A stretch of DNA of 64,000 nucleotides. It comes from Candidatus Parcubacteria bacterium (GTDB taxonomy: Bacteria > Patescibacteriota > Minisyncoccia > Minisyncoccales > JAGMDC01). The DNA is taken from positions 22,933-86,932 of the forward strand of contig JAGMAD010000005.1 in assembly GCA_023130975.1 (NCBI GenBank), given 5' to 3'. The notes beneath the pieces were generated by a model. The model had not been told where the DNA came from. It saw only the letters and a list, made by a program, of their open reading frames with translations, and ran no database searches. The translations under genes were made by a program, and so were the position numbers. Below, in pieces: positions 9,792 through 31,834 of the stretch (the first letter of the stretch is position 1; every line of letters starts with the position of its first letter).

Positions 9792-9830
9792 AGTTTAATT
9801 TTAACTTTTTTAAAGCAAATAAAAAAGCCC

Positions 9831-10220
9831 AAGCAGGCAATAAGCCGAATTCTGTCTTGGGCAATCATTTATCTATCGCCGAGCACTCAAAATTTTGAGT
9901 GCTCGGTCAAGCGAACTACTTTTTCACTTCGGCAAATCCGGAGATTGCCGAAATGCTTGTTCTTGCACCCGATAAGGATTTAGCCGTTTCACTTCTTCGA
10001 TTAACTCGAAGAACTCGCCAAGCACTCAGCAAACTGAGTGCTTGGCGCCTTAGCTCTTTCGAGCTTCGGCGTCTCTGTTCGCACCTCTAACCTTGCGGTC
10101 GACGGCTGTTAGCCGCTATCTTTTTAGACCAAGCACATAAATTATGTGCTTAAAATGGGTGTTCGGACTTTCCTCTAAGCACTCAGCGAACTGAATGCTC
10201 AGCGATTGCCTTGCCTACTT
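9831..10220 (-). ncRNA. rnpB: RNase P RNA (bacterial type A)
   Basis: The minus strand contains GAGGAAAGUCCGAACACC (CR-I) and ACAGAAUUCGGCUUA (CR-V). P1 is AAGUAGGCAA/UUGCCUGCUU and P2 is GGCAAUC/GAUUGCC. About 390 nt, followed by CUUGGGCUUUUUU. Confidence 0.9.
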
Positions 10221-10268
10221 AGACTGTTTCTATAGTAACAAAATAAAATCAACCTGTCAATGCTTTTA

Positions 10269-10712
10269 TCAAAATAATTTTCTGACTTTATTTTGGCTGT
10301 CTAATGCCTCGTTGACTAATCTGTCTGCTTCTTTGTTTTGTTCTCTGGGGATTGATTTAAATGTTAGTTTTTTAAAATCAATTTTTAAATTCCAGACCTT
10401 TAAAAACAAGGGCTGGATATTGGGCTCCAAAATCTTATATTCACCGTTCATTTGCTTGACTAATAATTGAGAATCAGAATTAATTTCAATCTCTGAATTA
10501 TAAGCTGTCTTTTTACCGAATAATAATTTAATTTTTTTCAAAGCAAAAATCACGGCCTGATATTCCGCCTCGTTATTGGTTAAATCATCGCCTAAATATT
10601 GGGAATATTCTTTTAATCTATTACCCTTTTCATCAGAAATTACTACTCCTATAGCTGATGGTCCTGGATTTCCCCGGGAACCGCCATCTGTGTAAATGAT
10701 AATTTTCTTCAT
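10269..10712 (-). CDS. rnhA: Ribonuclease HI
   Basis: MKKIIIYTDGGSRGNPGPSAIG...NNEAEYQAVIFALKK...SDSQLLVKQMNGEYK...REQNKEADRLVNEAL shows the DEDD catalytic residue context. Confidence 0.9.
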   Translation of the reverse strand: MKKIIIYTDGGSRGNPGPSAIGVVISDEKGNRLKEYSQYLGDDLTNNEAEYQAVIFALKKIKLLFGKKTAYNSEIEINSDSQLLVKQMNGEYKILEPNIQPLFLKVWNLKIDFKKLTFKSIPREQNKEADRLVNEALDSQNKVRKLF

Positions 10713-11978: not shown

Positions 11979-11990
11979 ATTACCCCTTGA

Positions 11991-12073
11991 CCCCCCACCA
12001 CTTTGTCAAAAGTCAAAATAAATGAGGAAATATTTAGGAAATTTTAGATGGCGTTTTACAAAGTGGTGGGGGG
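11991..12073. mobile_element. 83-nt palindromic MITE-like element, intergenic copy
   Basis: Perfect 16-bp terminal inverted repeats CCCCCCACCACTTTGT (11991-12006) and ACAAAGTGGTGGGGGG (12058-12073). TTGA direct repeats flank it at 11987-11990 and 12074-12077. Confidence 0.7.
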
Positions 12074-12101
12074 TTGATAAGATTTTATGGTTGTGTATAA
12101 T
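12074..12101 (+). promoter_or_regulatory. Candidate plus-strand promoter TTGATA-N16-TATAAT with no downstream ORF
   Basis: TTGATA at 12074-12079 and TATAAT at 12096-12101. The -35 box overlaps the right flanking TTGA of the element. Confidence 0.4.
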
Positions 12102-12390: not shown

Positions 12391-13512
12391 TTACTTTCCC
12401 GAGCATATTGCTTCTATTCCTACCAACTTTTCATCAACTAAATAATCAAGCATTGCGCCGCCGCCAGTGGAAACAAAACTAAATTTTTTAATTAAACCAA
12501 CCCTGGTTAAAAACTCAATCGTCTCCCCTCCTCCAACTACTGAAAAAGCTTTACCTTTAACAACAGCTTTGGCAATCTCTCTTGTAGCTTTAGAAAATCT
12601 CTTTTCTTCAGTTTTTCCCAATGGACCATTCCAAAAAATGGTTTTTGCTTTTTTAATTTTTTCAATAAATATTTTTATTGTTTTTTCTCCAATATCACCG
12701 CTATCCACCCAGTCCACAGGAAGAATAATTTTTTCTGGATATTTAAATTTTACATTCTGCCATTCTATTTCTTTAGGTATCAGGCCGCCAATTAAAACAT
12801 AATCAGTTGTTTCAGAAAGTTTGTTAATCAATTTTACTTTTGTTTTTACTTTGGCGCCGCCAATTATTGCTATTAAAGGTTTTTTTGGCTTAAACATTAA
12901 TTGTTTCAATGTCTCTATTTCTTTTTCTACTGAAAAACCAATACCTGAAGGCAAAAACTTTGGCAGACCAGTAATTGAGGCATGGGAACGATGGCAAACA
13001 GCAAAAGCATCATTAATATAAACCCCGCACCTTTTGTCGGCTAACTTTCTTAATTTAGGTGCTGAAGGTACCTTGCTGACAAAAGGTGCGGGGTAAATAT
13101 CGCCTGTTAATTTTGCCAAGTCCTTCGCAAATTTTTCATTATTTTCTTTCTCCCCTTTGTAAAATCTTAAATTCTCCAAAACAACAATATCTCCTGATTC
13201 CATTTTTTCTATTTCCTTTTCAACCTTATCGCCAATACAATCCGAAAAAAACCTAACTTTTTTATTTAATAATTCTCCTAATCTATTGGCAATTGGTCTT
13301 AAGCTAAACTTTTCTTCTCTTTTTTCCGGCCTGCCGAGATGACTAATTATAATAATCTTAGCTTGATTTTTTGCCAAATATTCAATGCTGGGAATAGCTG
13401 CTTTAATCCGAAAATCATCTAAAATATCCCCTTGTTTTGACAAAGGGACATTAAAATCAGTTCTTAATAAAACTCTTTTTCCTTGAAAATCAAAATCTTT
13501 TAATGTCTTCAT
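12391..13512 (-). CDS. pgk: Phosphoglycerate kinase, carrying a 25-codon element-derived insertion
   Basis: KRVLLRTDFNVP, IIISHLGRP, INDAFAVCHRSHAS, GGAKVKTK and STGGGAMLDYL. The ATG overlaps the stop of the upstream ATPase gene (ATGA). Confidence 0.93.
   Translation of the reverse strand: MKTLKDFDFQGKRVLLRTDFNVPLSKQGDILDDFRIKAAIPSIEYLAKNQAKIIIISHLGRPEKREEKFSLRPIANRLGELLNKKVRFFSDCIGDKVEKEIEKMESGDIVVLENLRFYKGEKENNEKFAKDLAKLTGDIYPAPFVSKVPSAPKLRKLADKRCGVYINDAFAVCHRSHASITGLPKFLPSGIGFSVEKEIETLKQLMFKPKKPLIAIIGGAKVKTKVKLINKLSETTDYVLIGGLIPKEIEWQNVKFKYPEKIILPVDWVDSGDIGEKTIKIFIEKIKKAKTIFWNGPLGKTEEKRFSKATREIAKAVVKGKAFSVVGGGETIEFLTRVGLIKKFSFVSTGGGAMLDYLVDEKLVGIEAICSGK
13023..13093. mobile_element. 71-nt palindromic MITE-like element inserted in frame in pgk
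   Basis: Perfect 16-bp terminal inverted repeats CCCCGCACCTTTTGTC (13023-13038) and GACAAAAGGTGCGGGG (13078-13093). TAAA flanks lie at 13019-13022 and 13094-13097. The total of 75 nt equals 25 codons. Confidence 0.75.
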
Positions 13513-15101
13513 TTTTCGTCTTCTTCTTTTTTCAGGGACTCTTCTAAAACTTCTTTTAATTCTTTAGTATTGATTTCTTTTCTTTCGGGCTTTTCTCTTT
13601 TTTCTTGAACTTTTCTATGAGGAGAGAAAAAAATAGGTTCTTTTTCCACTGCTTCATTCAAGGACATACTCGGTTCTTTTTTATCTTCTGTTTTAGTTAT
13701 TTTTTCAAGGCAGGACTTGCAATAAACAGGCCTTACTCCATCCGGCTTAAAAGGAACTTTTATCAACCTACCGCATTCCTGGCATTGAGCATCATAAAGA
13801 ACTGGCAAGGGCCTGACTGGTTCAGCTTCTTTTATTGGTTCTGACCACTGGCTAATTTTTTCTTCAACGATTTTTCTTTCTGTACCGTATTTGGCCCGCG
13901 ATTTTTCAATAATCTCTTCTCTGTTTGAATCTTCTGGCTTTGATGCAGGCAACAGGGTTTCAGCAGAAAATGGCCTGCTGGCTACACCGTCAATCATTAG
14001 CTTTAGATAGATGTTATATTTGGCTAAATTAACTAAATCAGAGGCAAAAAATTCTGGCATAAATTCTCTTTCTAAAAATTGGGCGTCCTCTGCTCCTATT
14101 CGAAAAGAAGCAATAGTGCCTACGTTGCCAAAAACAGCATCTCTGACTGTTTCTTCCATTTGAGCAATATATTGATGAGCCAGAATTAAGGACAAGCGGT
14201 ATTTTCTGGCTTCAGATAAGATATTGACAAAGGACTCGGTGGCAAAGTTTTGAAATTCGTCTACATAAAGGAAAAAATCATTTCTTTTCTCTTCCGGCAT
14301 ATCCACTCTGGACATTGCTGCTAACTGTATTCTGGTAATTAAAAGGGCGCCCAACAAGCGAGAAGCATCCTCCCCTATTCTCCCTTTAGACAAGTTCAAT
14401 ATTAAAATCTTTCCTTTATCCATCACCTCTCTCATATCAATAGATGATTCAACCTGGCCAATAATGTTTCTAATTAAGGGCGCGGAAATAAACTGGCCAA
14501 TTTTGTTTTGAATAGCTGCTGTGGCCTCTATCTCATATCTTTGGGTATACCTGGCAAATTCTTGAACCCAAAATGCTTTTACTACCGGGTCAGTTACTTT
14601 CTCTATCACCTCTTTGCGGTAATCAGTATCAGCCAGCATTCGATTGATGCCCAAAAGAGTGGAACCAGGATATTCTAAAAGAGCTAAAATACAGTTATTT
14701 AAAATATATTCCATTCTGGCTGACCAAACATCAGGCCAAATCTTTTTAAAGACACCCATTAAGCCGCCAGCCACTAAATGCCGTTTTTCAAGAGCTACTT
14801 CTTCCATAATATTAAAAGCAATGGGATAATCTAAGTCAGCGGGATTGAAATAAACAACATCTTTAATTCTATCCTTGGGCACAAAATCAAGAAGATTTTC
14901 TGCTGCCTCGCCATGAGGGTCAACAAAACCTATTCCCTTACCGTCTCTGACGTCTTGGATAGCCATATTCTCCAGCATAGCTGTTTTGCCCATACCAGTT
15001 TTTCCAACTACATAAAGATGCCGACGTCTATCATCGGTCTTGATGCCAAATTTTTTTCTGATATTACGAAAGTTTGTTTCTCCGAAAAAATTAATGTCCA
15101 T
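13509..15101 (-). CDS. VirD4/TraD-like (type IV coupling protein family) P-loop ATPase with a C-terminal CxxC...CxxC zinc ribbon
   Basis: Walker A VVGKTGMGKTAML, Walker B FFLYVDEFQNF, AHQYIAQM, and the C-terminus CQECGRLIKVPFKPDGVRPVYCKSC. I chose the ATG at 15101 because the ORF-track start at 15110 is TTG. Confidence 0.7.
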   Translation of the reverse strand: MDINFFGETNFRNIRKKFGIKTDDRRRHLYVVGKTGMGKTAMLENMAIQDVRDGKGIGFVDPHGEAAENLLDFVPKDRIKDVVYFNPADLDYPIAFNIMEEVALEKRHLVAGGLMGVFKKIWPDVWSARMEYILNNCILALLEYPGSTLLGINRMLADTDYRKEVIEKVTDPVVKAFWVQEFARYTQRYEIEATAAIQNKIGQFISAPLIRNIIGQVESSIDMREVMDKGKILILNLSKGRIGEDASRLLGALLITRIQLAAMSRVDMPEEKRNDFFLYVDEFQNFATESFVNILSEARKYRLSLILAHQYIAQMEETVRDAVFGNVGTIASFRIGAEDAQFLEREFMPEFFASDLVNLAKYNIYLKLMIDGVASRPFSAETLLPASKPEDSNREEIIEKSRAKYGTERKIVEEKISQWSEPIKEAEPVRPLPVLYDAQCQECGRLIKVPFKPDGVRPVYCKSCLEKITKTEDKKEPSMSLNEAVEKEPIFFSPHRKVQEKREKPERKEINTKELKEVLEESLKKEEDEK

Positions 15102-15380
15102 AATTATCAACGAATAACGAATCAGTTACGAATTTACGAATTAATTGAGCGAGGCAAATAATTTTTGGGATATTAAAGCGAGGGGAATAATTTTTGGGAC
15201 AATCCGCAGCGAATTGGCTTGGTCCCCCTCCTTTTCGCGCTTGCGCAAAAGGAGGGGGCAATTCGCGAGTAGCAGTAAATTTCCGCTGGAGAAATTTGCG
15301 TGTACCAAAAGTTACTCCCTGAGCGAAATTCCTAAAAATCACTCTCTAAGCGGTATTCTCAAAAGTTATACTTCCGAGCG
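15102..15380. repeat. 279-nt repeat- and hairpin-rich spacer inside an otherwise tightly packed operon
   Basis: Four ATTCGT hexamers lie next to the ATG. CCCAAAAATTATT occurs twice. A 35-nt GC hairpin CCCCCTCCTTTTCGCGC-TT-GCGCAAAAGGAGGGGG spans 15224-15258. There are three degenerate units of about 27 nt, CGCT(C/T)NG(A/G)(A/G)AGT..TTTT.G. Confidence 0.6.
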
Positions 15381-16670
15381 CTATTCCGTGGGCAATTCGG
15401 GTGGAGCCTCACCTCTCTTGGCCTCAACCCGAGAAATAGAAGGCGCAGCTGTAACTCCTCTACCTGGAAAATGATATAAAGAAGCTAATTCTTCAATGTT
15501 AAGAATAAAATTACCACCTGGCCATGGAAAAAAAGGACTTAATCTTTCAATATAGTTCCTGAACATTTTCCTTTTTCGAACATAAACCCTTCTATTATCT
15601 AAAAACCAAAGCCAAACAGTATGAACCTTAGTGATAGTTCTTTTCATTGGTTTTAATCCATTAAGATCTGCTGTGCCAAAAAGGTCAAAAAAACCCATTG
15701 GGATAGCTTTGTTAGGAGAGAAAAAGACATCTCTTTTCCCTAACTGAAGAAACCTTATACAACATTTAAAAGCGTACTTGCTCGTTTTATCTTCAATGGC
15801 AGACACTACTTTTTTCTCCCCGGGCGTCAGCTCCATTTCCGGAAGAATAGCTCTTTCTTTTTCCTCTGCTTCTTTTGGCACTTCTCCAGTAACTAAGACA
15901 TCTATTGCTTCTTCAATTATTGGTTTTGAAATTGGCGGCTTAGGTCTGTTCACTAATTTATCTACTTCTTTCTTTCCTTTTTCTATAAAATATTTGCTTT
16001 CGTCAAGATGAGAAACCGGCACAGCCGTAATTTGAACCCATAACTGCTCGCCCGGTTTAAATTTTGCCATTCCTTCTAAAAGATTGGACATAGGATCAAT
16101 TCTTTTTTCTTCTTTTGCTACTTCTGGTCTTTCTTCAAAAAATTTAGAATATGTCTTAATGGGATAAACCTCATCTTTTAGCTGATCATAATCACAGCCC
16201 CATATTTCCCAGTCCTTATTAGGAACGTCTTGGGGAACATATTTGGTATAATCATCAACTTCTATAATTTCCAAGTCCGGATACTGGGAATAAAGTACTG
16301 ATTCCACTAAATTACGAGCATTTTCTGGAATTCGAATAAAAAAATGGGGCTCACCCCCAAAACAAGCGATTTCTAAAGAAAAACCTAATTGCGCTTTTCC
16401 TTCAAACCATTTTTCTCTATAATTGGGCGGATCGTAAAAATGCCATAAGCCATTAAAGACAGTTTCCATTGCTTTAATAGGCCTTAAAACCTCTTTGGGC
16501 GGTTTTATTTCCAATACAATGCATCTTATTTTACCAAACCAAACTTGATTTCTCCACCAAAGATAAAGAAATAAAAAGGGCTTAATAAAAATAAAGGGTA
16601 TAATCACCCACCACCAAGTCCTTAAAAAATCCCAAATAGTATTAGAAATTAGAAAAATTTGCTCTTCCAT
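15381..16670 (-). CDS. Membrane-anchored hypothetical protein (429 aa) partnered with the VirD4-like ATPase
   Basis: Trp-rich N-terminal TM region (WDFLRTWWWVIIPFIFIKPFLFLYLWW) followed by a large soluble domain. The C-terminal tail (KRGEAPPELPTE) runs into the GC-rich repeat spacer. Confidence 0.6.
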   Translation of the reverse strand: MEEQIFLISNTIWDFLRTWWWVIIPFIFIKPFLFLYLWWRNQVWFGKIRCIVLEIKPPKEVLRPIKAMETVFNGLWHFYDPPNYREKWFEGKAQLGFSLEIACFGGEPHFFIRIPENARNLVESVLYSQYPDLEIIEVDDYTKYVPQDVPNKDWEIWGCDYDQLKDEVYPIKTYSKFFEERPEVAKEEKRIDPMSNLLEGMAKFKPGEQLWVQITAVPVSHLDESKYFIEKGKKEVDKLVNRPKPPISKPIIEEAIDVLVTGEVPKEAEEKERAILPEMELTPGEKKVVSAIEDKTSKYAFKCCIRFLQLGKRDVFFSPNKAIPMGFFDLFGTADLNGLKPMKRTITKVHTVWLWFLDNRRVYVRKRKMFRNYIERLSPFFPWPGGNFILNIEELASLYHFPGRGVTAAPSISRVEAKRGEAPPELPTE

Positions 16671-16673
16671 TAA

Positions 16674-17759
16674 TTATGCTTCTTTTATGGTGTATTTTCC
16701 TTGAGAATCTCTTAGGAAATATTTTTTGTTCTGCAGATTCAATAGAATGGTATTTTTCTGAACAAAACGTTGGGAGAGAACTTGGTCAGCAATTTCTTTT
16801 GAAGACAGGGGCTTTTCTGATTTTTTTAATACATCAATAATAACATCTTTCACTACTCCTGGCTGATACCCCCAATCGCTCAAGGCATAAAGACCCCGGC
16901 CTACTAAAACAAATCTTGGATCTTTAATTAATTCATTATGAACCGTCTTGACCAGGCAGGGTTTCTCCTCTTGCTCTTGTGCTTCAATAAACTCTGCTAC
17001 TTTAGTAAAGTGTAATGGCTTGTTTTCTCTTTTTATCACTAAAAATGCTTTATCTTTAATTCCTCTCGGATTAATCTCCGGCCAAATAGAAAAGCCGTAT
17101 AATCCTTCTGGCCCTGCTAATATCTGTTTTGAGATTTCAATATAAGAACCTGCCTCTCTCTGCTTGGCAGAACCTTGCTGCCTTTGGTAGTAAGAACCTG
17201 CCTCGCTCTGCTCGACAGAACCTTGATTTTCACGGCTACGCCGTGAAAAATAAGAAGATGAAACACTGATATTTTTTAAAGACAGGGGCTGATTTTTTTT
17301 CTTCAGCTCTTTAATAAAGGAGTCTATAACTTGTTGGGCTGAATTCAAAGCATTTTTATCTATGGTCCAAAAAGGATAAAAATCTTCGGTTTCAGAAAAT
17401 CTTTCAAATTGTTCTCCCAAAGTCAATAAAAATAAAACTTGGGGTTTAAACTTTTTTCCTCCAAGTTTTTCTAAAAGTAAATCTTCTCTCTTTAGTCCAC
17501 CGCAATCCTTTAATTCTTTGGCAAAACCCTGAAAGGCCTCTTGAGATATCTGTTCTGCTTTTCCCTTGACTTTTTTAAGCCCATCTTCTTCTATCTGGCG
17601 CACTCTTTCCCGGGTAATATTATAACTTTTGCCAATTGATTCTAATGTCTCTTTTTTCTCTATTCCAAAACCAAAACGTCGGCTTATAATATCTTTAGTT
17701 CTTTCCTGCGGTAAATCTTTTAGAATATCATTACAAATTTTTTGATAATTAACAAACAT
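16674..17759 (-). CDS. DNA-binding protein: N-terminal sigma-70 region-4-like HTH plus C-terminal HARE-HTH-like domains
   Basis: RRFGFGIEKKETLESIGKSYNITRERVRQIEEDGLKKV matches the region 4.2 pattern. The C-terminal PRFVLVGRGLYALSDWGY pattern is HARE-HTH-like, from memory. Confidence 0.6.
   Translation of the reverse strand: MFVNYQKICNDILKDLPQERTKDIISRRFGFGIEKKETLESIGKSYNITRERVRQIEEDGLKKVKGKAEQISQEAFQGFAKELKDCGGLKREDLLLEKLGGKKFKPQVLFLLTLGEQFERFSETEDFYPFWTIDKNALNSAQQVIDSFIKELKKKNQPLSLKNISVSSSYFSRRSRENQGSVEQSEAGSYYQRQQGSAKQREAGSYIEISKQILAGPEGLYGFSIWPEINPRGIKDKAFLVIKRENKPLHFTKVAEFIEAQEQEEKPCLVKTVHNELIKDPRFVLVGRGLYALSDWGYQPGVVKDVIIDVLKKSEKPLSSKEIADQVLSQRFVQKNTILLNLQNKKYFLRDSQGKYTIKEA
17127..17222. 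repeat. Diverged 48-nt tandem duplication in the linker of the HTH protein
   Basis: It encodes GSVEQSEAGSYYQRQQ / GSAKQREAGSYIEISK. The 36-nt cores CAAGGTTCTG.C.AGCAGAG.GAGGCAGGTTCTTA match at about 30 of 36 positions. Confidence 0.65.
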
Positions 17760-27190: not shown

Positions 27191-27228
27191 ATCTAATTTG
27201 ATTTTAACAAATTTTTATAAAAAAACAA

Positions 27229-27296
27229 CCCCGCACCTTTTCTAGACAGCTTTGAATTTTTGAAGCCTTTGGCTTCTGTCCAGAAAAGGTGCGGGG
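27229..27296. mobile_element. 68-nt palindromic element copy forming a 23-bp stem with a T-run upstream of secA
   Basis: AACCCCGCACCTTTTCTAGACAG ... CTGTCCAGAAAAGGTGCGGGGTT. The terminal 13 nt CCCCGCACCTTTT are identical to the pgk copy. On the minus strand it is followed by GTTTTTTTTAT. Confidence 0.7.
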
Positions 27297-27312
27297 TTGG
27301 AGAAGAAATTTA

Positions 27313-30530: not shown

Positions 30531-31691
30531 ATGTATTTTGTTCATCCCCAAATAAATTTAAACAAAAAAAATTTTCAGAAAATATTCTCTTCTTTTTTCC
30601 GAACTCCTGATTCAAAGGGCTTAAACAAAAAGCTCTCTTCTTTCTTTCCGGAAAAGCAGATTGTTTTTACTGACATGGGCAGGTCGGCTTTTCAAATCAT
30701 AATTGAAAAAATGAATTTAAGAAACAGCCAGATGCTTTTTCCTGCTTACATCTGCGATATCTTCCTGCCCATTTTTAAGAAATATAATATTAAACCGATT
30801 TTCTTAGATGCTGATATTAAGACCTTTAATTTAAAAATTGAAGAAATGGAAAAGAAAACCAGTCCCCAAACCAAATCTATTTTTGTTTCCCATATTTACG
30901 GCCTGCCTAATAACATAAATAAGATATTGTTTATCGCTAAAAAACATAATTTAAAAGTCATTGAGGACTGCGCCCATAGTTTTGGGATAAAAAAGGGAAA
31001 AAGATATTTAGGAAATTTTGGTGAGGCCTCTTTGTTCAGTTTATACAAATTTCTTCCGGTTGCTAGAGGAGGAATGCTGGTCTGTCCCAAGAACTGGAAA
31101 ATAGATTTAGAAGAAACATCTTTCAGTCCCCGTGATTTTATTTCTTTCTTAAACCATTTTCCTTTTTGGGCTTTTCTGTTTAAAAAATTTGGCGGCTTCG
31201 TTTCTCCAAAAATAATAAGAAAAGAAAAGCTGTCTAAGACCGGAGGAATTAACAAGGTCTCTTTGAATCTATTTTCTTCTCTCTTTGAAGAACACCAGAA
31301 AAATTTAAAAAAAAGAATAAATCTTGGCTTGTTTTTTCAAAAAGAACTTAAAAATTTAGGCTTTGAGACCCGGGAAGGAAAAGAGAATGGTTTTTGCTAT
31401 CTTTCTGTTTTAATGCCAAAAAAATTGAGAGAAAAAAGAGATGATTTTATAAAAGGACTGAGAAAAGAAGGTGTCCATTGTACAAGAATGTGGTATAGTC
31501 CTATAGTTCTTAATCCGGAAGCGCAAAAAAAATACAAATTAGACCTAAATGAATTTCCAAATACCATAGAGATAAGCCAAAGAGTTATTAATTTTCCTTT
31601 GCAGGATTTCTTTCAGAAAAAAGACATAAAAGAAATGATTGGAAAAATAAAGAAAGTGCTTAATTCACTTGACCCCGTAGTGAAAATTTGA
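30531..31691 (+). CDS. DegT/DnrJ/EryC1/StrS-family protein (aminotransferase-like)
   Basis: PAYICDIFLPIFKKYNIKPIFLDAD, VSHIYGLP, VIEDCAHSFG and SLYKFLPVARGG. The last codons and the stop lie inside a palindromic element. Confidence 0.6.
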   Translation: MYFVHPQINLNKKNFQKIFSSFFRTPDSKGLNKKLSSFFPEKQIVFTDMGRSAFQIIIEKMNLRNSQMLFPAYICDIFLPIFKKYNIKPIFLDADIKTFNLKIEEMEKKTSPQTKSIFVSHIYGLPNNINKILFIAKKHNLKVIEDCAHSFGIKKGKRYLGNFGEASLFSLYKFLPVARGGMLVCPKNWKIDLEETSFSPRDFISFLNHFPFWAFLFKKFGGFVSPKIIRKEKLSKTGGINKVSLNLFSSLFEEHQKNLKKRINLGLFFQKELKNLGFETREGKENGFCYLSVLMPKKLREKRDDFIKGLRKEGVHCTRMWYSPIVLNPEAQKKYKLDLNEFPNTIEISQRVINFPLQDFFQKKDIKEMIGKIKKVLNSLDPVVKI

Positions 31692-31748
31692 CAAAGTTTT
31701 CTTTTGGAAAACTCATATCGCAAAGCGAGTCAAATTTCTACTACGGGG
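31673..31748. mobile_element. 76-nt palindromic MITE-like element overlapping the 3' end of the DegT-like gene
   Basis: The arms are CCCCGTAGTGAAAATTTGAC and GTCAAATTTCTACTACGGGG. TTGA flanks lie at 31669-31672 and 31749-31752. The stop codon at 31689-31691 lies inside the element. Confidence 0.65.
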
Positions 31749-31834
31749 TTGACACAAGTTCTTGAATTTGCTAACATTAGATTAGTGAGTGTGAGATCCT
31801 ATGAGAAATCAAAGGAACTCCATTCTTTGTCGGC

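Follow-up and report, generated by a model that had tools for sequence, protein, structure and literature searches.

Patescibacteria, which account for much of bacterial diversity, apparently live off other cells. We analysed a stretch of 64,000 nucleotides (nt) from a Candidatus Parcubacteria bacterium (contig JAGMAD010000005.1, positions 22,933 to 86,932; "the window" below means this whole stretch), in which three adjacent genes encode a helix-turn-helix (HTH) protein of 361 residues, here called SigHARE, a membrane-anchored protein of 429 residues that by close homology appears to be a member of the DUF8128 family (PF26449), and an ATPase resembling the coupling proteins of type IV secretion systems (T4SSs). 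Tentatively, and with a little less than even confidence, we read the DUF8128 protein and the ATPase as a long-form type IV coupling protein (T4CP) that is split into two polypeptides and would feed a substrate to a translocon in the cell envelope. The pair is read in this way because the same two modules are fused into single proteins in Bacillaceae plasmids and in Bacillus phage G.

The fused relatives were reached only by profile-profile and fold comparisons. In phrog_5156 (824 profile positions), DUF8128 aligned at positions 29-288 and the ATPase at 408-808. Phage G gp156 (825 residues) was aligned to DUF8128 by hhalign at 96% and E 1.5e-9 over residues 44-315, and a homologous ATPase follows this region. 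The two proteins have in common an EEL..HxPG motif, and gp156 was the best structural match of DUF8128 in a viral library (Foldseek E 8e-17); the DUF8128 model also matched gp155, the VirB4-like neighbour of gp156. For a protein of 870 residues encoded by a Peribacillus plasmid (NZ_CP068052), hhalign to DUF8128 gave 96.9% and E 1.7e-10. With the N-terminal region of this protein, tblastn found relatives on 18 Bacillaceae plasmids and also gave 31.9% identity between this region and a homologue of 913 residues on a Bacillus subtilis plasmid (NZ_OX419568). Downstream of both fused genes lie Replic_Relax, conjugal-transfer and TcpE-family genes, and the B. subtilis module additionally holds a gene for a large ATP-binding protein. 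The fusions have the two modules in the same order as the window pair, and they keep the motif EEL(A).(L).H(F/L)P together with the R...K...P.LP.E linker that follows it. They differ from the window pair in being single polypeptides, where the window and every close patescibacterial relative use two genes; in lacking the N-terminal transmembrane (TM) helix of DUF8128, as the Bacillus fused forms do; in having no zinc ribbon as far as they were scanned; and in lying within conjugation modules alongside genes for Replic_Relax, TcpE and VirB4-like proteins. No experimental characterisation of the fused proteins was found.

Two further candidates were not counted as homologues of DUF8128. An Embleya plasmid encodes a protein of 812 residues with a TM segment, an N-terminal domain and an ATPase, situated between genes for PrgI and a VirB4-like ATPase and genes for Replic_Relax and NlpC/P60; its hhalign match to DUF8128 was weak (E 0.004, probability 8%). 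For a Rhodococcus protein of 738 residues hhalign failed. In jumbo phage G (locus L082, 1196-5338) the gene for gp155, a VirB4-like ATPase, adjoins that for gp156, the DUF8128-T4CP fusion, and the same pairing is seen in the actinobacterial (Embleya, L085 3882-8248) and Bacillus plasmid conjugation modules.

The ATPase exceeded the Pfam gathering scores of three T4CP families: TrwB_AAD_bind (38.8 against 20.5 bits), TraG-D_C (27.1 against 22 bits) and T4SS-DNA_transf (20.8 against 20.1 bits). It fell below every NCBIfam equivalog cut-off, the best score being 42.7 against 366 bits (TIGR03743, TraD), with the VirD4-like CD1115 and TrbC models lower still. TrwB and DotL were its sole solved relatives in a sequence search of the Protein Data Bank (PDB). 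An AlphaFold 2 (AF2) model of medium confidence (pLDDT 74.6) was matched best by TrwB in Foldseek (E 7e-12, TMt 0.58), then by DotL and Cagbeta, and by HerA after these; VirB4 chains were absent from the top 50. The T4CPs (TrwB of R388, VirD4, TraD/TraG, DotL and Cagbeta) have a P-loop nucleotide-binding domain with an all-alpha insertion, and in the model such an insertion occupies roughly residues 107-231 and separates Walker A from Walker B. The motor is followed by a small helical domain, a zinc ribbon with CQEC at residue 443 and CKSC at 464, for which both PF23477 and TIGR04272 (zf_Tbcl_2 / CxxC-x17-CxxC) were above their cut-offs, and a tail rich in lysine and glutamate that ends in a conserved helix. 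This charged tail resembles that of TraD, which binds relaxosome partners. No TM segment was detected (19-residue hydropathy maximum 1.15, with no stretch above 1.6). From its sequence and predicted structure, the ATPase is a coupling-protein-type motor without an anchor of its own.

In place of the N-terminal TM domain of T4CPs, the anchor is found on the separate DUF8128 protein. The ATPase also differs from T4CPs in its C-terminal zinc ribbon, in being chromosomal, vertically inherited and unusually conserved, and in having no relaxase or mating-pair-formation genes beside the three genes, among the large open reading frames (ORFs) of the window that were scanned, or in the closest relative, L001. 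With respect to HerA, the DUF87 score was 20.8 bits, under the cut-off of 23.2, and HerA structures rank below T4CPs. The translation start is probably the ATG at 15101 (MDINFF..., 530 residues) and not the TTG at 15110, since the 82%-identical orthologue in L001 starts likewise. The closest relative of the ATPase outside Patescibacteria is encoded by a Sulfitobacter mediterraneus plasmid (L084 6983-8170; 40.8% identity, E 6e-91). It is a stand-alone protein of 395 residues, found among transposase genes, with neither a DUF8128 partner nor a zinc ribbon.

The 429-residue protein contains 15 tryptophans (3.5%) and a single hydrophobic segment, at roughly residues 19-40. This helix is followed by basic residues, and by the positive-inside rule its large domain is therefore predicted to be cytoplasmic. 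The database holds 1,140 homologues at E <= 1e-3, and PF26449 is precomputed on most of the best 120 of these, including ones of 88-89% identity; the match is marked weak for P0002, and a local Pfam scan of the window protein itself gave no PF26449 match, so that its membership of the family rests on close homology. An HMMER profile search gave 2,590 cluster representatives. Column identity in the family averages 53-60%, with many invariant residues. We found no paper naming DUF8128 or PF26449.

The AF2 model of DUF8128 (pLDDT 86.7, pTM 0.82) consists of a long helix (residues 2-47), an alpha/beta domain and a C-terminal tail of low confidence that is nevertheless conserved (RVEAK.GEAPP.LP.E). 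When the model was compared with the PDB in Foldseek, the top 14 matches were all TrwK/VirB4 chains of the R388 T4SS (E 5e-5 to 5e-3); the next was an unrelated protein at E 0.04. As no other P-loop ATPase structure was matched, the region concerned would be the N-terminal domain of VirB4. On the model, the soluble domain of DUF8128 thus probably has a VirB4-like fold. A profile search of PDB sequences with DUF8128 matched no chain, and Pfam matched no C-terminal ATPase of VirB4 type (AAA_10, P-loop_TraG, CagE_TrbE_VirB) in either DUF8128 or the ATPase. In comparison with VirB4, then, the two parts are on separate genes and the partner ATPase is T4CP-like, not VirB4-like. The division into two genes comes at the linker that connects the conserved tail of DUF8128 with the invariant N-terminus of the ATPase (residues 5-31). 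Both stretches are conserved and of low confidence when modelled alone, a hint that they fold against each other.

An earlier note, made from the window sequence, had described three ORFs with Walker A and Walker B motifs, a zinc ribbon and an ATGA overlap with pgk, and all of these are present where it placed them. Its view of the ATPase as coupling-protein-like is borne out by the Pfam and PDB sequence matches and by the fold. The membrane protein, which it could assign to no recognisable family, has close homologues that carry PF26449 and a fold that is predicted to be VirB4-like; its proposal that this protein serves the ATPase as a dedicated partner agrees with the tight gene spacing in relatives and with the fused forms in Bacillus plasmids and phage G.

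To follow the inheritance of the genes we used 80 genome loci encoding DUF8128, nearly all labelled as Patescibacteria lineages; L025 and L055 are labelled non-patescibacterial yet have the same synteny. SigHARE, DUF8128 and the ATPase were all present in 72 loci, and in each of these 72 they were collinear and on one strand. A member was missing despite room for it in just two of the 80. The gap between DUF8128 and the ATPase in relatives is usually 0-30 nt. Most loci show the gene order SecD-SecF-SigHARE-DUF8128-ATPase-PGK-DHH-RNaseH; the most distant ones, Terrybacteria, Niyogibacteria and Kerfeldbacteria among them, keep the trio and have lost the flanking SecDF and pgk synteny. Adjacency to pgk is absent from L071, L077, L080 and L081, all of which keep the trio, and it therefore reflects synteny at the level of the clade and is no evidence of shared function. 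Of the proposal in the earlier note that the genes form one unit coupled to pgk, the unit stands, and the coupling, real in the sequence, is overstated: pgk is a co-transcribed neighbour of the trio and no functional member of it. Co-conservation of the trio in related genomes, on which the note had made its interpretation depend, is found.

The ATPase is the most conserved gene of the neighbourhood. Median identity to the window protein was 67.7% for the ATPase, 57.9% for SecD, 53.6% for SecF and 42.3% for PGK, and constraint on the motor exceeds that on the housekeeping genes around it. The GC content of the trio equals that of its flanks. The trio is a vertically inherited core gene set and not a mobile element: synteny, co-inheritance, conservation and flank-like GC together exclude a recent origin from a mobile element. 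An integrated conjugative element or prophage remnant, or an anti-phage defence module of HerA or FtsK type, is accordingly very improbable and largely refuted by synteny. Such an origin would fit the presence of homologous ATPases on plasmids and phages, the PADLOC matches (mad8 at E 1.6e-14, HerA and DndH) and the fold matches, which include HerA defence complexes. Most of the 80 loci, however, have the trio at one and the same chromosomal position, between secDF and pgk, and they include members of the candidate groups Nealsonbacteria, Wildermuthbacteria, Terrybacteria and Kerfeldbacteria; the trio has no integrase, relaxase or further gene typical of mobile elements beside it; GC does not depart from that of the flanks; and conservation is very high, unlike that of defence islands. 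DUF8128 has no match in PADLOC, nor was it found by tblastn in phage and plasmid records or by a pattern scan of IMG/VR. We rejected the defence-system reading, as the PADLOC matches are weak and synteny contradicts it, and, on synteny and composition, the mobile-element reading.

One locus departs from the common layout. In Minisyncoccus archaeiphilus PMX.108, a cultured parasite of archaea (L064 9363-12857), a gene for a pilin-like protein of 1,164 residues, with an N-terminal methylation motif and Gly_rich_2, lies between DUF8128 and the ATPase, and the ATPase is extended to 784 residues. This insertion is unique among the 80 loci.

In all 72 loci with the three genes, SigHARE immediately preceded DUF8128, with both on one strand. 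In agreement with the two-domain DNA-binding protein of the earlier note, Pfam places a Sigma70_r4 HTH at residues 19-65 (E 2e-12) and two HARE-HTH / winged-helix stretches at the C-terminus (E 7e-11). Between them are a helical part and a low-complexity linker ahead of the C-terminal modules. The protein is soluble, with no TM segment by hydropathy. Sigma regions 2 and 3 gave no match, and the NCBIfam sigma models aligned by their C-terminal ends only, far under cut-offs. Against the model of the RNA polymerase delta subunit of low-GC Gram-positives (RpoE, TIGR04567) it scored 29 bits, the cut-off being 42; both proteins have HARE-HTH, and SigHARE is without the acidic C-terminal tail of delta. 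No paper was found that ties HARE-HTH plus sigma region 4 to the candidate phyla radiation (CPR).

In the scheme that we infer for a split long-form T4CP, DUF8128 would provide the membrane anchor and a cytoplasmic, VirB4-like docking domain, and the ATPase a TrwB/VirD4-type motor, presumably hexameric, whose charged C-terminal tail could bind a partner. DUF8128 would bind the ATPase and hold the hexamer at the inner face of the membrane, where hydrolysis of nucleoside triphosphates would drive a macromolecular substrate, most likely DNA or nucleoprotein, into a translocon of the cell envelope. As this translocon, the VirB4 T4SS of Patescibacteria type, encoded elsewhere in the genome, would be the likeliest. 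A T4SS is the simplest choice because the fused relatives examined lie near VirB4-like ATPases or in conjugation modules and because most Patescibacteria have a T4SS; the motor may be simply the coupling protein of that system. SigHARE would act as a DNA- or RNA-polymerase-binding adaptor of the unit, or as its regulator, and would hold the neighbour position that Replic_Relax, of the relaxase family, has next to the fused homologues.

A separately encoded anchor has a counterpart in the conjugative plasmid pIP501, whose TraJ, a T4CP without TM segments, is tethered to the membrane by TraI according to a published proposal (PMC12857230). TraJ and the window ATPase alike have no membrane segment of their own and go with a separate membrane protein. 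TraI, however, is small, has two TM helices and lacks a large cytoplasmic domain, while DUF8128 has 429 residues and a VirB4-like domain of about 380; and pIP501 has a relaxase, unlike the window locus. A further parallel comes from Patescibacteria themselves. In an extract of Table S3 of Quiñonero-Coronel et al. 2025 (PMC12102498), patescibacterial VirB4 usually adjoins a separate gene for TrsD, which resembles the VirB4 N-terminal domain and is a separate protein in Gram-positive T4SSs as well, and none of the T4CPs in the extract is listed beside a TrsD. The two-gene layout of VirB4 (TrwK) and TrsD is like that of DUF8128 and the ATPase, and as far as this extract goes both T4SS-type ATPases of Patescibacteria seem to be pairs of an N-terminal domain and a motor on two genes.

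The same study reports VirB4 in 2,417 of 3,035 Patescibacteria genomes (80%) and 5,713 T4CP homologues in 2,918 of them (96%), of which only 148 are near virB4; relaxase homologues are rare (109, in 103 of the 3,035 genomes). The extract of Table S3 lists typically one t4cp1 per genome, far from virB4, and the authors state for the T4CP homologues that exaptation "cannot be ruled out". It is thus already known that orphan T4CP homologues are near-universal in Patescibacteria and are encoded away from virB4. The obligate DUF8128 partner, the split long-form architecture and the linkage to SigHARE appear to be undescribed so far.

A number of points weigh against a split T4CP serving a T4SS. The trio lies at a distance from virB4. 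More genomes have a T4CP homologue (96%) than have VirB4 (80%; PMC12102498), some genomes in the extract of Table S3 have a t4cp1 row and no VirB4 row, and in Southlakia ML1 the T4CP homologue, possibly an orthologue of the window ATPase, is reported to be non-essential whereas the T4SS is essential (PMC12102498). Conservation of the ATPase above its housekeeping neighbours is, in our own judgement, unexpected for a typical secretion-system component. There being no relaxase, the substrate cannot be a classical relaxase-DNA adduct. The TM-scores of the match between DUF8128 and VirB4 are low (0.34-0.43), and the matched region is assigned to the N-terminal domain by inference and not from alignment coordinates. 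No fused form was found in close patescibacterial relatives, where a concatenated query was covered to at most 52%, in matches of at most 602 residues. In a mirror-tree analysis of 33 loci, a weak test for so slowly evolving an ATPase, the partial r was 0.13 for DUF8128 with the ATPase and 0.29 for SigHARE with DUF8128, against 0.65 for the SecD-SecF control, and no excess rate covariation of DUF8128 with the ATPase was seen. Finally, SigHARE could be an unrelated, syntenic RNA-polymerase factor.

Several of these points would suit a T4SS-independent housekeeping DNA pump, a membrane-anchored hexamer acting alone like FtsK, SpoIIIE or Streptomyces TraB, which we regard as possible although somewhat unlikely. 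Such a pump would move double-stranded DNA at division, or take in environmental or host DNA or nucleotides, and SigHARE would be its sequence- or structure-recognising DNA-binding module in trans, in the manner of the FtsK gamma domain. It would account for the housekeeping context and vertical inheritance, for the conservation of the ATPase above SecD and PGK, for the spread of T4CP homologues beyond VirB4 (and, within the Table S3 extract, into genomes without a VirB4 row), for the reported dispensability of the Southlakia homologue beside an essential T4SS, for the near absence of relaxases from the phylum, and for the constant presence of an adjacent DNA-binding HTH protein. Like FtsK/SpoIIIE, the window unit would be a membrane-anchored P-loop motor of the same superfamily that may use HTH recognition. 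It differs in having its single TM helix on a separate protein, and T4CPs followed by HerA, not FtsK, top the fold search. FtsK_SpoIIIE gave no Pfam match in the ATPase at E <= 0.1, and there is no gamma domain; one TM helix per subunit would be too little for a DNA channel by itself; and the fused homologues examined are in conjugation modules or beside a VirB4-like ATPase. Saccharibacteria at least are said to have an FtsK of their own, which counts against the pump as well.

A bolder form of the same idea, which we hold to be unlikely, makes the trio a nearly universal patescibacterial housekeeping translocase, independent of the T4SS, whose motor kept or regained a docking domain of VirB4 type and is split in two. 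If so, with SigHARE it would move DNA or nucleoprotein across or along the membrane, and it could import host nucleic acid into an organism unable to make nucleotides, or replace part of the function of FtsK. It would also represent a lineage bridging VirB4 and VirD4 and be informative on how the ATPases of T4SSs diverged. The observation in the earlier note that the ATPase is an orphan among housekeeping genes is upheld, with no relaxase or other T4SS gene nearby among the large ORFs scanned; the non-conjugative role that it proposed is plausible, and its suggestion of DNA uptake from a host is speculation.

The VirB4-like fold raises a different alternative, in which the motor handles proteins in the manner of VirB4, extracting pilins or membrane proteins or recruiting effectors, and SigHARE is a regulator of the operon only. 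We judge this to be quite improbable. The DUF8128 fold matches VirB4 alone, VirB2-like pilin arrays are abundant in Patescibacteria, and a giant pilin-like gene stands between DUF8128 and the ATPase in Minisyncoccus. The Southlakia T4SS is without recognisable coupling and relaxase proteins and has been suggested to export proteins (Wang et al. 2023). The motor, however, is T4CP-like, with no VirB4 chain in its top 50 fold matches; its Pfam matches are to DNA-binding and DNA-transfer families of T4CPs; the fused relatives adjoin relaxase-family genes; and the Minisyncoccus insertion occurs in that one locus of the 80.

A split long-form T4CP remains the reading that we prefer. What is added here to the known orphan motors is an obligate and previously unremarked partner, DUF8128, which would give the motor an anchor and a VirB4-like domain, and a dedicated HTH protein with which the pair travels. 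The three genes, their predicted interfaces and their conserved tails offer testable handles on macromolecule transport in Patescibacteria. Together, the fused proteins of Bacillus plasmids and of phage G delineate a broader long-form type of coupling protein, of which we found no description and which bears on the relationship between VirB4 and VirD4.

Coordinates of the trio, its motifs and other features (positions in the window unless marked L001)
Feature	Position	Strand	Basis or remark
SigHARE, 361 residues	17759..16674	minus	ORF
DUF8128 protein, 429 residues	16670..15381	minus	ORF
T4CP-like ATPase, 533 residues	15110..13509	minus	ORF
pgk	13512..12391	minus	ORF; start overlaps ATPase stop
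Predicted membrane helix of DUF8128, Trp-flanked, residues ~19-40	16551..16616	minus	Kyte-Doolittle 19-residue maximum 1.77 at residues 19-21
Walker A GKTGMGKT, residues 36-43	14982..15005	minus	sequence
Walker B VDEFQNF, residues 283-289	14244..14264	minus	sequence
CxxC-x17-CxxC treble-clef zinc ribbon, residues 438-470	13701..13799	minus	PF23477 E 1.3e-12, TIGR04272 E 6e-13
Structured spacer, 270 nt, between DUF8128 and ATPase	15111..15380		core hairpin 15224-15258
Promoter-like site TTGACA, 17-nt spacer, TGnTATAAA	17768..17796	minus	near-consensus match only, read from sequence
Bacterial RNase P RNA class A	9826-10221	minus	105 bits, just over gathering score 100
Palindromic element copy	13016-13100		in pgk
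Palindromic element copy	27226-27299
Palindromic element copy	11990-12074
Palindromic element copy	31672-31749
Palindromic element copy	15224-15258
Palindromic element copy	L001 1863-1897

SigHARE, DUF8128, the ATPase and pgk are four head-to-tail genes on the minus strand, and the stop of the ATPase overlaps the start of pgk in the sequence ATGA. The promoter-like site upstream ends 8 nt ahead of the first ATG of the operon, and a transcript starting from it would therefore be leaderless or nearly so. It was not listed by the promoter scan because of the final A in its -10 hexamer. A scan of ten other large ORFs of the window, not extended to smaller ones, found no domain of VirB4, VirB6 or a relaxase; these ORFs encode functions in polysaccharide synthesis, aminotransferases, a methyltransferase, an O-antigen-ligase-like protein and peptidoglycan-binding proteins. 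The annotated neighbours in L001 include SecA and SecDF, and no VirB4, VirB6 or relaxase was found among them. Elsewhere in the window, the RNase P RNA makes the small ORFs lying over it (9899..10090 and 10195..10470) spurious.

The spacer of 270 nt that separates DUF8128 from the ATPase folds as a long imperfect hairpin with a minimum free energy of -86.2 kcal/mol (z -5.26; none of 200 shuffled sequences was as stable), and it had no match in Rfam. It is absent from the 88%-identical relative, where the gap from stop to start is 5 nt, and its core hairpin recurs elsewhere in that relative. The spacer, probably an inserted sequence akin to the palindromic elements of the window, lies outside the conserved unit. 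It may uncouple translation of DUF8128 and the ATPase, or carry an internal signal.

The palindromic elements form a family of about 75-85 nt with ends like ACCCCGCACCTTTT...AAAAGGTGCGGGGT. The copy in pgk is in frame and adds 26 residues, which the 69%-identical orthologue in the closest relative lacks; other copies are intergenic. These elements recall the Rickettsia palindromic elements or repetitive extragenic palindromic (REP) sequences.

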